A stretch of 64,000 nucleotides of DNA from an uncultured Anaerolineaceae bacterium (lineage in GTDB: Bacteria > Chloroflexota > Anaerolineae > Anaerolineales > DRMV01). The notes below the pieces were generated by a model that saw nothing but the letters and a program-made list of their open reading frames with translations, was not told the origin of the DNA and ran no database searches. This document shows positions 31,840-35,398 of this stretch, one piece after another. The stretch spans positions 180 to 64,179 of the forward strand of contig CAYUOX010000052.1 of NCBI GenBank assembly GCA_964446575.1, given 5' to 3'. Made by a program: the position numbers and the translations under genes. The number at the start of each line of letters is the position of its first letter. Position 1 is the first letter of the stretch.

Positions 31840-33177
31840 TCAGGCGGTTTCCAGATAGCGCGCCACCTCCCAGTCGGTCACTTGCATGCGATATTCGGCC
31901 ACCTCGGCCTTCTTGGCCCGCATGAACGCGGCGTACAAACGCTCGCCCAGCGCGGCCTGAAGCACCTCGTCGCGCTCCAATTCGTCCAAGGCCTCTTCCA
32001 GCGAGCCTGGCAGGGATTGCACGCCTTTGGCCCGCCGCTCTTCTTCGCTGAGTTCATACAGGTTGATGTGGTCCATCGCGGGCGGCGGTGTCAACTTCCG
32101 ATCGATGCCGTCCAGGCCCGCAGCCAGCATGGCCGCGAAGGCCAAATACGGGTTCGCGGAGGGATCGGGGAAGCGCAGTTCCATTCGCACGGACTTGGAT
32201 TTGCCCTCTTTGGGCCGCGGAATGCGCACCAAGGCCGAGCGGTTGATTTGGGCCCAGGCGATGTACACCGGCGCTTCGTAGCCGGGCACCAGGCGCTTGT
32301 AGGAGTTCACCGTGGGCGCCACTACCGCGGTCAGCGCACGCGCGTGGGCCAATTGCCCGGCCAAGAACGCGTATGCCAAATCGGAGAGCAAATAGGGGTC
32401 GTTGGGCGCGTAGAACAGATTGTTTCCTTGCGTGTCGAACAAGGATTGGTGGCAGTGCATGCCGGAGCCGTTGATGCCATACACGGGTTTGGGCATGAAC
32501 GACGCGATCAAGCCGTGTTGATGCGCGATGGCCTTGACGGTGTATTTGAGGGTGACCACGTTGTCCGCGGCGACCAGGGCATCGGCAAAGCGAAAGTCGA
32601 TTTCGTGTTGCCCCAGCGCGACTTCGTGATGGCCCATTTCGATGTCCAGGCCCATGCTGGTGAGCGCGTCCATGAGTTGCGTGCGCACGCGCACGGCTTC
32701 GTCGTTGGCCGAAAAGTCGAAATATCCCCCCACATCATGGGGCACGGGCCGCACTGCATCGCCGTTGCGCTTGAACAAGAAAAACTCGGGTTCGGGCCCG
32801 ATGTTGTAGATCCAGCCCCGGGTTTCGCGCAGGCGGGCCAACATGCGCTTGAGATTGCCGCGCGGGTCACCGACAAAAGGTGTGCCGTCGGGCAAGTAGA
32901 CATCACAGAAAATGCGGGCCCGGCGCCGTTCTTCAGGCGTCCAAGGCAGCACCGCATAGGTGTCGATGTCGAGCACCAAACGCATGTCGCTTTCTTGAAT
33001 GCGCGCGAACCCCTCGATGGACGAGCCGTCGAACCACACGCCGTCTTCTAAGGCTTCGGGCAATTTGCTGACCGGAATGTCAACGCTTTTGACCGCGCCG
33101 GTCACATCGGTAAATTGCAGAGAGATGAAGCGAACGCGGTCTTCACGCACGCGGGTCATCAGTTCGTCGCGGGTCAT
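31840..33177 (-). CDS. glnA: Glutamine synthetase, type I
   Basis: 'VRFISLQFTDVTGAVKSVDIP', 'FDGSSIEGF' and 'GSGMHCHQSLF' motifs. GGAGGTG RBS before the ATG at 33177. The upstream 67 codons of the track ORF were rejected. Confidence 0.95.
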   Translation of the reverse strand: MTRDELMTRVREDRVRFISLQFTDVTGAVKSVDIPVSKLPEALEDGVWFDGSSIEGFARIQESDMRLVLDIDTYAVLPWTPEERRRARIFCDVYLPDGTPFVGDPRGNLKRMLARLRETRGWIYNIGPEPEFFLFKRNGDAVRPVPHDVGGYFDFSANDEAVRVRTQLMDALTSMGLDIEMGHHEVALGQHEIDFRFADALVAADNVVTLKYTVKAIAHQHGLIASFMPKPVYGINGSGMHCHQSLFDTQGNNLFYAPNDPYLLSDLAYAFLAGQLAHARALTAVVAPTVNSYKRLVPGYEAPVYIAWAQINRSALVRIPRPKEGKSKSVRMELRFPDPSANPYLAFAAMLAAGLDGIDRKLTPPPAMDHINLYELSEEERRAKGVQSLPGSLEEALDELERDEVLQAALGERLYAAFMRAKKAEVAEYRMQVTDWEVARYLETA

Positions 33178-33681
33178 AAGCACCTCCAAAAAAGGAATGA
33201 GATAGCCTCTTGTGGCCGGGCCTGGCCGGAAGACCACGGTTTCTCGAGCCCAGGGCGGGTTGGCTCGAGGCGCCTGTTTAAAGCAAACAGGCACGCCGGG
33301 CGTGCCTGCGGGTTTGCGTTCCCATTGTAAACGGCCGCCCCTTCCAAAGCGCGCGACCAGGGCCATGCCCTGGGCCACTGGGCCGGCCTTGGCCCACCCG
33401 TCGCCGGATGGTTTTCAGCACGGCCCTTTGCCGGAAGGGGAAGAGCGAGGCCCGTGGCCAGGCCTCGGAGGCATCCGCTGAACTGTCCGATTTTCCCCGG
33501 CGGTGGAGCCGGTGCCACGTCCAGGGGATACACCCTGGCCCATCGCACCGACCGCTCGGGTTAGCACTCCCCTCGCGGGGAGGAACCTCCACCTCGTAGC
33601 CTCACGGTGCTGCAAAGAGATACCCGTGAGGCCCAGCCGCTACTCTTCCTATGCGGTTGTTGTGGGCCTGGAGCCCAATTG
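33178..33681 (-). ncRNA. Long, highly structured 5' leader or independent ncRNA upstream of glnA (unclassified)
   Basis: It lies downstream of a consensus promoter. Perfect stems include 33600-33631, 33567-33582 (GNRA-type loop GCGA), 33357-33373 and 33243-33269. An intrinsic terminator lies at 33276-33308. No convincing ORF is present. Confidence 0.4.
33276..33308 (-). terminator. Intrinsic terminator inside the glnA upstream region
   Basis: The minus strand reads CAGGCACG-CCCGG-CGTGCCTG followed by TTTGCTTTAAA, about 100 nt upstream of the glnA ATG. Confidence 0.6.
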
Positions 33682-33687
33682 CAGGCC

Positions 33688-33716
33688 ATTCTACGCGCAC
33701 TTGGGCGTCCTGTCAA
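33688..33716 (-). promoter_or_regulatory. Near-consensus promoter (TTGACA-17 nt-TAGAAT) reading toward glnA
   Basis: Minus strand has TTGACA (33716..33711), a 17-nt spacer, and TAGAAT (33693..33688). Confidence 0.6.
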
Positions 33717-33728
33717 GGGCGCGAGCGG

Positions 33729-33920
33729 GGTGTTCGAAAATTTCACCCGGGGACACGGTGAGCACGGCGGGAGGGAGTACAGAAAGGGGATTTTAGGGCA
33801 TGGAGGACCGTTGGAAAAGCAAACCGGCGTGAATTTGCCCCTTTCGCGATTTGCGCGCGATTCTGGGGGCGTTCTGCTCCGCGCTGCGGATGAGCCCGGG
33901 AGGGCATGGGGCAAAACATG
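33729..33920 (+). repeat. Dispersed intergenic repeat, copy C (3'-truncated or diverged)
   Basis: Aligns with copy A from GGTGTTCGAAAATTTCAC through GGGGCAAAAC. Similarity is lost after ~33918, near the 3' end of the GT39-like gene. Confidence 0.8.
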
Positions 33921-33955
33921 GAGAGCGCGAAGGTGTCCGGCGTCCCTCGCGCCCG

Positions 33956-35398
33956 TTAGTAGTCGAAATGGGCTTCATGGCCATGTGGCCCCAGCAGCAC
34001 CCTCCAGCGGGCGCGCTGGGCCCAGAGGTCTGCCCCCCAAGCGGCCAGCAGCAGGGCTTGGGCGGCGCGTCCGGCCCAACGCCGCCATGCGCCGCCGGGC
34101 GCGGCTTCGGCCGCGCGCCATTGCTCGCGATAGGCCCAAGTCCAGGCTGCGGCCGAGGCGAGGAAAGGCACCAGGGCCAAGTGCATGCGCGGGTCGGCCA
34201 AAATGAGCGCGTGGGGCGCGGTGTAGGCGAGGGCGAAGGCCAGGGCCCAAGCCCAGCCGGGGCCACGGCGTCCGTGGGCCCAAGTGCGTATCGCCATCAT
34301 CATGAGCAGGGCGAAAGGACTCAGCCACACTACCAGGACCCCGATAAGCACCGCGCGCGGCCAGGCTCCCAGTACGCCGTTGCTGTATAAATACATGAGC
34401 ACCCGCTTTTCCAGACCATAGAACGCGGTCAGGCGATGGAGCGTTCGGCGCAGAAATTCGCCCACGCCCTCTTGGCGGATGAACGCCCACGCGCGCGCCC
34501 GCGCCACTGCGTCTCGTTCGGCATCGTCCACGATGTACAGCAACTCCTGCGCCGCGGGCGGGTAGAACGTGCCGTCGCCGTCGGGATGCGCGCCGATGTA
34601 CAGATTGTAGCCGCCCGAGGTCTCGAGCCAGACCCAGCGGCCATGCAAGCGGGCGTTGCGCACCAGCCAAGGGCCACAAAGGGCGACCAGCACGGCCAGC
34701 GCGGTGACCACGCTGCGCGCGCGGGCCCTCTTGGCCGTCCACGCGCGCGCGAGCACCAGCGGGACGAACACCGCGGCCACCGAGCGGGTCAGCATGGCCA
34801 GCCCCAACACCCCGGCCGTGGCCGCGGCCCAGCGCGGCGCGGCCGATGCCCGCGGCCCGCGAACCAACAGCACCAGCAACCCCAGGCTCAACGGCAAGAA
34901 CAAGTTCTCGGTTGCCAAGGCCAGTGGCAACAACACCAGCATAGGATACGCACTGACCGCGCCCGCGGCCATATCTGCCGCGCGCGGCCGCGCGGGCATT
35001 AGCGCGCGAGCCAATGCCCAAGTCAGCGGGGCCACCAGCGCGCCCAGCACGGCCTGTGCCAGCCGCGCCGCAAACCAGCGATGCTCCAAGCCGGCCACGC
35101 GATACCACACGGCCAAAAACGCGGGGTACAAGGGGCCGCGAAACGAGGTCGGCAGCCCGCGCGGATCATAGTCAGGATGCGTCGTCGGATCGAAATCAAT
35201 GTACCGTTGAATGAGGGCCACATCCTCCAGCGCGTACCAGCGAAAGCCTTGCCCCGCGGCCAGGCTACGGGCCAGCATGTCATATTGGAACATGTCGTCC
35301 AAACCAATGCCCAGCCCGCGGCCGGCCAGCACCGCGGCCAAGCGTAGCACCAACGCCACCGCAAACCACCACCAGGCGCGACGCGCGGCGGCCCTCAT
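33956..35398 (-). CDS. GT-C fold membrane glycosyltransferase (GT39/PMT_2, ArnT-like)
   Basis: 480 aa and polytopic. The N-terminal loop 'GIGLDDMFQYDMLARSLAAGQGF' and 'PLYPAFLA' are typical of dolichyl-/undecaprenyl-phosphate-sugar-dependent transferases. Confidence 0.7.
   Translation of the reverse strand: MRAAARRAWWWFAVALVLRLAAVLAGRGLGIGLDDMFQYDMLARSLAAGQGFRWYALEDVALIQRYIDFDPTTHPDYDPRGLPTSFRGPLYPAFLAVWYRVAGLEHRWFAARLAQAVLGALVAPLTWALARALMPARPRAADMAAGAVSAYPMLVLLPLALATENLFLPLSLGLLVLLVRGPRASAAPRWAAATAGVLGLAMLTRSVAAVFVPLVLARAWTAKRARARSVVTALAVLVALCGPWLVRNARLHGRWVWLETSGGYNLYIGAHPDGDGTFYPPAAQELLYIVDDAERDAVARARAWAFIRQEGVGEFLRRTLHRLTAFYGLEKRVLMYLYSNGVLGAWPRAVLIGVLVVWLSPFALLMMMAIRTWAHGRRGPGWAWALAFALAYTAPHALILADPRMHLALVPFLASAAAWTWAYREQWRAAEAAPGGAWRRWAGRAAQALLLAAWGADLWAQRARWRVLLGPHGHEAHFDY

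Follow-up and report, generated by a model that had tools for sequence, protein, structure and literature searches.

The glnA leader region

The DNA analyzed here is a 64,000-nucleotide (nt) stretch of contig CAYUOX010000052.1 from an uncultured Anaerolineaceae bacterium, which we call the window, and our subject is the region upstream of its glnA gene, where we find an RNA that, judged by homology, is a divergent relative of the self-cleaving glmS ribozyme. The glnA gene (31840..33177, minus strand) encodes a type I glutamine synthetase (GS) of 445 aa with the Pfam domains Gln-synt_N and Gln-synt_C, and this protein is 70–91% identical to GlnA of Anaerolineae metagenome-assembled genomes (MAGs). 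Its ATG start codon is at 33177-33175, preceded by a Shine-Dalgarno (SD) sequence, GGAGG, at 33187-33183. The next gene upstream stops at 33956, which leaves an intergenic region of ~780 nt, and the ~500 nt between the promoter described below and the glnA ATG are noncoding. All window features that follow are on the minus strand.

An initial annotation made from the sequence alone had proposed that this region carries its own promoter, a long stem-rich RNA without a credible open reading frame (ORF), and an intrinsic terminator upstream of glnA, and we found all of the sequence features it listed where it had placed them on the minus strand. The sigma-70-type promoter, TTGACA-17-TAGAAT (33716-33688), matches at 11 of 12 positions, with the −35 box TTGACA at 33716-33711, a spacer of 17 nt, and the −10 box TAGAAT at 33693-33688, and the predicted transcription start of the unit is near 33681. 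Three promoter-like sites are seen in 1.5 kb, versus 0.1 expected from shuffles. The 513 nt from the promoter to the ATG fold better than 100 of 100 shuffled sequences (z = -3.3). The ORFs listed inside the leader region are typical high-GC artefacts, and related loci show indels of lengths that are not multiples of three, together with compensatory base changes, across these ORFs.

The proposed terminator exists as a sequence feature: a hairpin of 10 pairs (7 of them G-C) at 33309-33287, followed by the U-rich tail TTTGCTTTAAA. The feature as a whole, CAGGCACGCC-CGG-GGCGUGCCUG then UUUGCUUUAAAC, occupies 33276..33308, and the tract after the hairpin, UUUGCUUUAAA, fits the pattern of an intrinsic (Rho-independent) terminator. 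Between this terminator-like hairpin (33288) and glnA (33177), the window has no promoter-like site. A further hairpin listed in the initial annotation, CTCGAGCC/GGCTCGAG, is also present between the terminator-like hairpin and the SD (CUCGAGCC...GGCUCGAG, 33243..33269), but it is specific to the window and is not conserved in related loci.

Upstream of the promoter, ~240 nt (33717-33955) separate it from the stop of the neighboring 480-aa ORF, which is without a Pfam match, and a weaker second promoter-like site, TTTCCA-16-TAAAAT (9 of 12 matches), lies at 33817-33790.

Relationship of the leader RNA to the glmS ribozyme

No family matched anywhere in the window when Rfam was applied at gathering thresholds. 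A permissive scan of 33000-34100 gave RF00234, the glmS ribozyme, at 22.4 bits (E=0.007), with the full model (1-167) aligned to 33652-33370. The match holds the core strings AGCG, ACGAGG, GGAGG, AUCG, and CAGCGGAUGCCUCC, and it has A/GCG at the cleavage site (the slash marks the scissile bond), GCGGAUGCCUCC, and peripheral loops AAAAC...GGCGAC...CCAAGG. The window score is lowered by insertions of 102 nt and 36 nt. Relatives that align continuously with the window copy reach 46.2, 36.2, 31.1, and 28.7 bits with RF00234, and copies with the same core that are linked to a glmS gene score 59.0, 49.4, 42.6, 34.3, 33.4, and 32.3 bits. The RF00234 gathering threshold therefore cuts across one continuous clade, and as a consequence such elements are under-annotated in Chloroflexota genomes. 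Of what the initial annotation had suggested, the architecture and the idea of a metabolite-sensing kind of RNA stand, while an RNA outside the known families does not, by the refuting sign that the annotation itself had named, an Rfam hit.

Other searches were negative. The glutamine riboswitch RF01739 and other nitrogen-related RNA families gave no match with E up to 10 in 33000-34100, and 6S RNA (RF00013) was not found in the window by Rfam or nhmmer. No glmS gene was detected in the window or in loci L001-L082 with an E. coli GlmS query sequence; we consider the query adequate because the same query detected glmS in 11 metagenome loci.

We assembled an alignment (A2) of 69 nonredundant units of the window's type, which we call glnA-type, and scored a hand-drawn structure that includes both pseudoknots. 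The element is ~300 positions long, the alignments have 500-640 columns, and an nhmmer profile of A2 was used for searches. The catalytic-core strings A/GCG, (G)ACGAGG, GGAGG, AUCG, and CNGCGGAUGCCUCC are present in the window and invariant in the 69 relatives, and of the 44-60 invariant alignment columns the window retains every one. Standard pairs occupy 94.0% of cells versus 81.1% in shuffled alignments (0 of 500 shuffles reach this value), and sliding the partners by 1-3 columns drops paired cells to 36-49%. Changes on both sides are seen in 41 of 65 pairs, with a covariation score of 0.433 versus 0.06-0.12 in the slid controls; when A2 itself was folded, 36 of 59 pairs had compensatory changes. 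Covariation supports the structure. The pairs with two-sided changes are found in P1 (5/6), P3 (5/6), P4.1 (6/7), P4 (3/3), two inserted helices, Pi1 with a GNRA loop (6/6) and Pi2 (5/5), and the terminator hairpin (5/9). P2, P2.1, P2.2, and P3.1 are nearly invariant and so are paired with little or no covariation evidence; among them, the pseudoknot P2.2 (nt 2-7 with 52-56) has 97.7% paired cells, and P2.1 (28-30 with 43-45) has 99.0%.

The pairing scheme of the canonical core was taken from PMC7125110. The predicted scissile bond lies between A(-1) at 33641 and G1 at 33640, inside AGCGGCUG (RF00234 consensus A/GCGCC), and AGCG at this site is invariant in the 69 relatives. The ribozyme body then spans 33338..33640 in coordinates from the A2 alignment. 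It begins with the 5′ strand of P2.2 (33639-33634) and P1 (33633-33598), which is the stem CCTCACGG/CCGTGAGG of the initial annotation, followed by the 5′ strands of P2.1 (CGA, 33596-33594) and P2 (GGAGG, 33590-33586). The two inserted helices come next: Pi1 (33582-33567), which is the noted stem CTCCCC-GCGA-GGGGAG, and Pi2 (33560-33496), which in the window contains a specific insert of 55 nt (33555-33501), where Pi2 of other members holds up to ~90 nt. The 3′ strands of P2.1 (UCG, 33490-33488), P2.2 (CAGCG, 33480-33476), and P2 (CCUCC, 33471-33467) close the core, and the peripheral part consists of P3 (33466-33447; the noted GAGGCC/GGCCTC), the 5′ strand of P3.1 (33441-33434), P4/P4.1 (33433-33376), the P5 hairpin (33373-33357; the noted CCAGGGC-ATG-GCCCTGG), and the 3′ strand of P3.1 (GGAAGGGG, 33347-33338). 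The noted stem at 33276-33308 is the conserved terminator hairpin, and the noted GGCCCA/TGGGCC is a small hairpin upstream of the cleavage site.

That small hairpin (GGGC/GCCC) belongs to the 5′ leader of ~40 nt (33642..33681) that the predicted cleavage would free, and it is accompanied there by a strongly conserved block, ACAACAACCGCAUAGGAAGAGU, with the family consensus AACAAYUGAAUA..GGAGAAAU. The block lies at 33663-33642 (A2 columns 9-35), where the glnA-type consensus reads UUAACAAYUGAAUA..GGAGAAAU with the palindrome CAAUUG inside. It has no covarying partner in the alignment, nothing in the Rfam glmS consensus corresponds to it, and it could belong to the initially transcribed region or serve as a site for a protein or an RNase.

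The glnA-type core differs from the core of glmS-linked copies at positions 4, 5, and 26 alone. In the Thermoanaerobacter tengcongensis core, the pairs are C2-G56, G3-C55, C4-G54, C5-G53, and G7-C52 with A6 bulged, together with 28-30/43-45 (PMC7125110). The 3′ strand of P2.2 in Chloroflexota is C52-A53-G54-C55-G56, and the 5′ strand has C4, a bulged A5, and U6 in glmS-linked copies and a bulged G4, C5, and U6 in the glnA-type. Variants of the T. tengcongensis core with a shifted bulge in P2.2 keep far more activity than mismatched variants (PMC7125110). Mutation of B. anthracis positions 49, 51, and 65 removes dependence on glucosamine-6-phosphate (GlcN6P) (PMC5311495), and an offset mapping equates positions 51 and 65 with U43 and G57, which are unchanged and the same in both groups.

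From the alignment and the covariation, we conclude that 33652-33338 is predicted to form a structurally complete, divergent glmS-type self-cleaving ribozyme. By the same sequence comparison, it falls in a Chloroflexota/Anaerolineae subtype with two extra core stems, and within this subtype the window copy belongs to a distinct subfamily with the site motif AGCGGCUG that is not associated with glmS.

Downstream genes and the transcription unit

The distribution of the element was followed in two ways. A GlnA-based set comprised 80 species-level loci from Anaerolineae/Chloroflexota MAGs or isolates with GlnA 70-91% identical to that of the window, and in 50 of these 80 genomes the element profile found a copy at most 4 kb upstream of glnA and in its orientation. 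The cultivable Thermanaerothrix solaris (L016) is among the relatives with the unit directly ahead of glnA. The element is ~300 nt before glnA in some of these loci, and in others an EamA-family transporter gene, with or without an Ada-type regulator gene, lies between the element and glnA; glmS was never found between them. The Ada-type gene encodes AraC helix-turn-helix and O6-methylguanine-DNA methyltransferase domains, and the Ada-type and EamA-family genes recur between the unit and glnA in L080 (2157-3014 and 3040-3972) and ~36 further loci.

The second search was blind to the downstream gene and scanned metagenome contigs for the RNA motif ATCAGCGGATGCCTC, a spacer, and YCCCYTY; because it needed the clade-specific core, it covers that clade. 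It returned 120 loci, in which the first gene downstream was ada-like in 36, glnA in 34, a GOGAT-like ORF in 14, glmS in 11, eamA in 8, and another gene in 5, with too little downstream sequence in the remaining 12. The 36 ada-like loci continue as ada-eamA-glnA (14), ada-eamA (8), ada-GOGAT-like (3), or ada alone to the end of the sequence (11). The GOGAT-like ORF occurs in an 824-aa form with Pfam Glu_synthase and Glu_syn_central and in a 467-aa form without its own Pfam match that shares ~39% identity with the N-terminal half of the longer one. The 467-aa form directly follows the ribozyme-hairpin unit in L162, L128, L164, L182, L193, L194, L093, L095, and L158, and an 824-839-aa form does so in L135 and L191. 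That the unit recurs at both GS and GOGAT-like genes suggests that it regulates nitrogen assimilation.

The sequence at the cleavage site follows the downstream gene. All eight scorable glmS contexts have the site motif AGCGCAUG, and AGCGCATG is confined to glmS contexts (8/8) among loci with an identified downstream gene. The non-glmS contexts have AGCGGCUG (69 loci), AGCGUAUG (10), or AGCGUCUG (2), and AGCGACUG occurs in this group as well. The site motif thus splits glmS-linked from glnA-type copies, and the window is glnA-type; the 11 of 120 gene-blind loci that precede glmS all have a site motif other than that of the window.

Two loci, L001 (3540-3915) and L013 (3620-3935), have a promoter homologous to that of the window (CCTTGACAG...GCGnTAGAATG) and the same terminator hairpin, and between them a different structured RNA of ~300 nt with the conserved block CAGCGAUGGCGGCAG...CUCGCAUCGCUAAGGGGCGC. 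This RNA has no Rfam match and no further homologue among the loci compared, and it could be a second glnA leader that replaced the ribozyme module.

As in the window, the glnA-type units elsewhere tend to begin with a promoter of their own. Using a criterion of at least 9 of 12 matches (mostly 10-11/12) with the end of the −10 box 28-54 nt before the cleavage site, we found a sigma-70-like site in 75 of the 78 glnA-type units that have no 6S gene beside them, compared with a background of 6% of windows of sequence. About one-third of the loci with enough upstream sequence carry a 6S RNA gene (RF00013, 57-82 bits) immediately upstream in the same orientation, versus 0 of 9 among the glmS-linked copies for which that much sequence is available. 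In 14 loci 26-31 nt separate the 6S end from the predicted cleavage site without an intervening promoter, and in such fused loci ribozyme cleavage would free 6S from a common precursor. Examples of adjacent 6S genes are L010:3436-3612, L018:3197-3373, L031:1341-1516, and L009:2351-2527; the window itself has no 6S gene.

The other end of the unit is a family hairpin, GGCAYGCC-loop-GGCRUGCC plus a U-tract, at a fixed distance after the ribozyme in all non-glmS contexts. By a strict pattern it is present in 33 of 41 units in the ada context, 7 of 11 in the eamA context, and 32 of 55 in the glnA context, and in 1 of 10 in the glmS context. Most members have 7-9 U in the 10 nt after the hairpin, with a mean of 6.7 when glnA follows directly versus 8.0-8.4 in the ada and eamA contexts. 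Where glnA follows directly, the hairpin mostly ends 25-40 nt from its start (median 33.5, range 25-310), the window having 112 nt, and the distance to the start of eamA is ~24 nt and to that of the GOGAT-like ORF 23-37 nt. With the hairpin 23-40 nt from the start in these direct contexts, there is no room for another promoter, and the gene must be transcribed through the unit.

We considered and rejected the hairpin as a glnA-specific element: when ada and eamA intervene, it stays by the ribozyme and is found before glnA in 0 of 29 cases, and for this reason we assign it to the RNA unit and not to glnA. A DNA operator is also unlikely because the loop can have anything from 3 to 7 nt. The variable terminator positions have mutual information of 0.74-0.88 with their hairpin partners, and the next best column reaches at most 0.41; comparing each variable column of the terminator with every column of the alignment thus gave no sign of an antiterminator pairing, invariant columns being uninformative in such a test. 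A pairing of the core strand GGAUGCC with the 5′ arm of the terminator was dropped for want of covariation support. Four of the nine pairs of the stem GGCAYGCC/GGCRUGCC (33288-33308 in the window, A2 columns 601-625) are invariant across very divergent loci, and ordinary intrinsic terminators do not have such conservation of stem sequence. Taken together, the architecture described for the window, with its own promoter, a long structured RNA, a terminator-like hairpin, and then glnA, recurs in more than 100 related loci.

Proposed function and relation to known systems

GlcN6P is made from glutamine and fructose-6-phosphate, so a high level of GlcN6P would read out sufficiency of nitrogen, that is, of glutamine and amino sugars. 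We propose that transcription begins near 33681 and reads through the ribozyme, and that GlcN6P, when abundant, would act as the cofactor for self-cleavage between A33641 and G33640. Cleavage would leave a 5′-OH on the glnA leader, which would lead to fast decay and less GS. For glmS mRNAs, the 5′-OH cleavage product is described as decaying rapidly (Collins et al. 2007, as cited in PMC5473149). The hairpin at 33308-33288 is probably a leaky, partial intrinsic terminator that would fix basal read-through into glnA. On balance, and by a modest measure, we favor the view that the glnA leader cleaves itself in response to GlcN6P and thereby reduces GS expression. The broader proposal, for which our confidence stops a little short of even, is that a paralogous branch of glmS ribozymes was recruited for GS-GOGAT control, with GlcN6P or a new ligand as the nitrogen signal, and that about one-third of the loci would also release 6S RNA.

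Several findings weigh against the view that we favor. The window score is below the RF00234 gathering score of 37, and the two closest GlnA relatives, L001 and L013 (90-91% identity), are without the ribozyme. Positions 4 and 5, beside the scissile bond, differ from those in glmS-linked copies, and position 26 (the G of GACGAGG), which in the canonical core forms a base triple with G7-C52 of P2.2, is invariant in glmS-linked copies and variable in the glnA-type. In the largest context class an Ada-type DNA-repair regulator with no obvious nitrogen link comes next, after a gap of 82-566 nt, and here, where the gene comes after a strong terminator, the arrangement looks more like neighboring genes than like a leader and its gene. 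A stable hairpin directly ahead of the SD, as in the window, could hinder 5′-to-3′ decay instead of permitting it. Lastly, a strong promoter combined with a good terminator is the signature of a stand-alone small RNA as well.

In the leading alternative, the unit could be an autonomous noncoding RNA (ncRNA) of ~400 nt that ends at 33288, is syntenic with glnA, and affects glnA by read-through or in trans. The dedicated promoter in 75 of 78 units fits this idea, as do the canonical U-tract in the ada and eamA contexts (8.0-8.4 U per 10 nt), the gap of 82-566 nt to the ada-like gene, and the hairpin positions, which covary with their hairpin partners alone and give no sign of an alternative pairing; the 6S gene 26-31 nt upstream in 14 loci would suggest a cluster of ncRNAs. 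We nevertheless regard an autonomous RNA as rather unlikely, since the unit always precedes glnA, eamA, or a GOGAT-like gene in the same orientation, and where the hairpin is 23-40 nt from the start, that gene can be transcribed through the unit alone. In the window, there is likewise no promoter-like site from 33288 to 33177, and the U-tract is weaker (mean 6.7 U) just where glnA follows directly.

A less probable alternative, which we would call distinctly unlikely, keeps the fold and alters the trigger, so that the RNA has changed or lost its cofactor specificity and responds to another amine metabolite, or cuts constitutively as a processing site for 6S or the leader. It would account for positions 4-5 being GC instead of CA and for the lack of constraint at position 26, and in the 14 loci where the cleavage site is 26-31 nt after 6S with no promoter between, a cut would free 6S. 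A few mutations are enough to make the glmS ribozyme cofactor-independent (PMC5311495). The cofactor pocket, however, gives no hint of such a change: G1, C2, the P2.1 A-U-C-G, and CAGCGG including G57 are invariant and the same as in glmS-linked copies, and G57 is, by offset mapping, the counterpart of B. anthracis G65, the position where a mutation has the greatest part in abolishing GlcN6P use. A ribozyme of 300 nt would also be a costly route to a constitutive cut.

It is very improbable that the RNA is a decayed relic, that is, a former glmS ribozyme that is now an inactive, structured spacer in the glnA leader. The low Rfam score of the window (22.4 bits), the window-specific insertion of 55 nt, and the loss of the element in the closest relatives could be taken this way, but all of the core positions that are invariant in the family are intact in the window, the insertion lies in Pi2, where other members carry up to ~90 nt, and compensatory changes keep the helices across loci whose GlnA proteins are 66-91% identical. 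That the leader is a hitherto undescribed riboswitch or protein-titrated attenuator with no kinship to known RNA families can practically be discounted, even though no Rfam gathering score is reached in the whole window, given the full-length sequence and structure homology to glmS ribozymes, including both pseudoknots, and the copies with the same core that precede genuine glmS genes.

We next compare the glmS-type ribozyme of the glnA leader with known systems. The RNA is not a new class, since it is a glmS-type ribozyme, and the downstream gene is the unusual part. Like the RF00234 glmS ribozymes of Bacillus subtilis, B. anthracis, and T. tengcongensis, the window RNA has the A/GCG site and P1, a double-pseudoknot core ACGAGG-GGAGG...AUCG...C(A/G)GCGGAUGCCUCC, and a P3, P4/P4.1 peripheral domain with AAAAC and ACAAGG loops, and it is located in a 5′ leader a short distance past the promoter. 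It differs in that the first gene is not glmS, but glnA in the window and a GOGAT-like, eamA, or ada-like gene elsewhere; in the two extra helices between GGAGGUU and AAAAUCG; in P2.2, which in the glnA-type involves A53 and has position 4 bulged out, with position 26 unconserved; and in the conserved terminator-like hairpin that follows, the window scoring below the gathering threshold.

The Chloroflexota glmS-linked copies (for example L084, L097, L118, and L163) share the clade core AUCAGCGGAUGCCUC, GGAGGUUCC, the inserted hairpins, and the peripheral domain, and their Rfam scores (32-59 bits) overlap with those of the glnA-type. They differ from the glnA-type by the motif AGCGCAUG, an invariant G26, the GGCAYGCC hairpin in 1 of 10 copies, and 6S in 0 of 9. 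In L084, L118, L172, L163, L147, and L097, the SD of glmS, 5-8 nt before the ATG, doubles as the 3′ strand of P3.1, CAGGAGGGG, which pairs with CCCCUCCUG after P3, so that in these six copies the ribozyme fold would sequester the ribosome-binding site. The equivalent strand of the glnA-type, GGAAGGG, is invariant and has no start codon after it. One of these contigs with a glmS-linked ribozyme also has a T-box leader beside two tRNA genes (L163:2443-2672, minus strand; 89.2 bits, gathering score 93).

Variant glmS ribozymes are also reported from Deinococcus-Thermus: McCown, Roth and Breaker are said to have described, in 2011, variants there with extra stems in the catalytic core and an altered periphery, and to have placed all but two of 463 representatives in glmS mRNAs. 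Our elements resemble these variants in having lineage-specific extra core stems and a poor score with standard models, and differ in that more than 100 loci, forming a whole subfamily, are tied here to genes other than glmS.

The glmS ribozyme is a textbook riboswitch class bound to a single gene, and the reviews consulted present it solely as a regulator of glmS. A literature search, limited in its reach, found no report that ties glmS ribozymes to glnA, 6S RNA, or Anaerolineae. As far as that search showed, a large non-glmS subfamily on GS/GOGAT genes and 6S, with its own promoter and terminator hairpin, is apparently new. If it is functional, the regulon of the glmS ribozyme would extend to central nitrogen assimilation, which would suggest GlcN6P as a signal of nitrogen sufficiency in Chloroflexota.

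This logic is like that of the glutamine riboswitch (RF01739) of cyanobacteria and marine metagenomes, where an RNA in a nitrogen-assimilation leader also follows a metabolite of nitrogen status, but the two are unlike as molecules: RF01739 is a small, noncatalytic glutamine-binding aptamer, and the window RNA has no sequence or structure relation to it and no Rfam match with it. The association with 6S has its own parallel in E. coli ssrS-ygfA, where 6S RNA is cotranscribed with a downstream gene. In about one-third of the loci related to the window, 6S is likewise immediately upstream on the same strand and apparently in one transcript with the mRNA. Unlike in ssrS-ygfA, a ribozyme 26-31 nt after the 6S RNA could separate it from the mRNA. 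To our knowledge, the glmS ribozyme is the only natural ribozyme with a metabolite cofactor, and these loci, if functional, would set such a metabolite-dependent ribozyme between an ncRNA and an mRNA.

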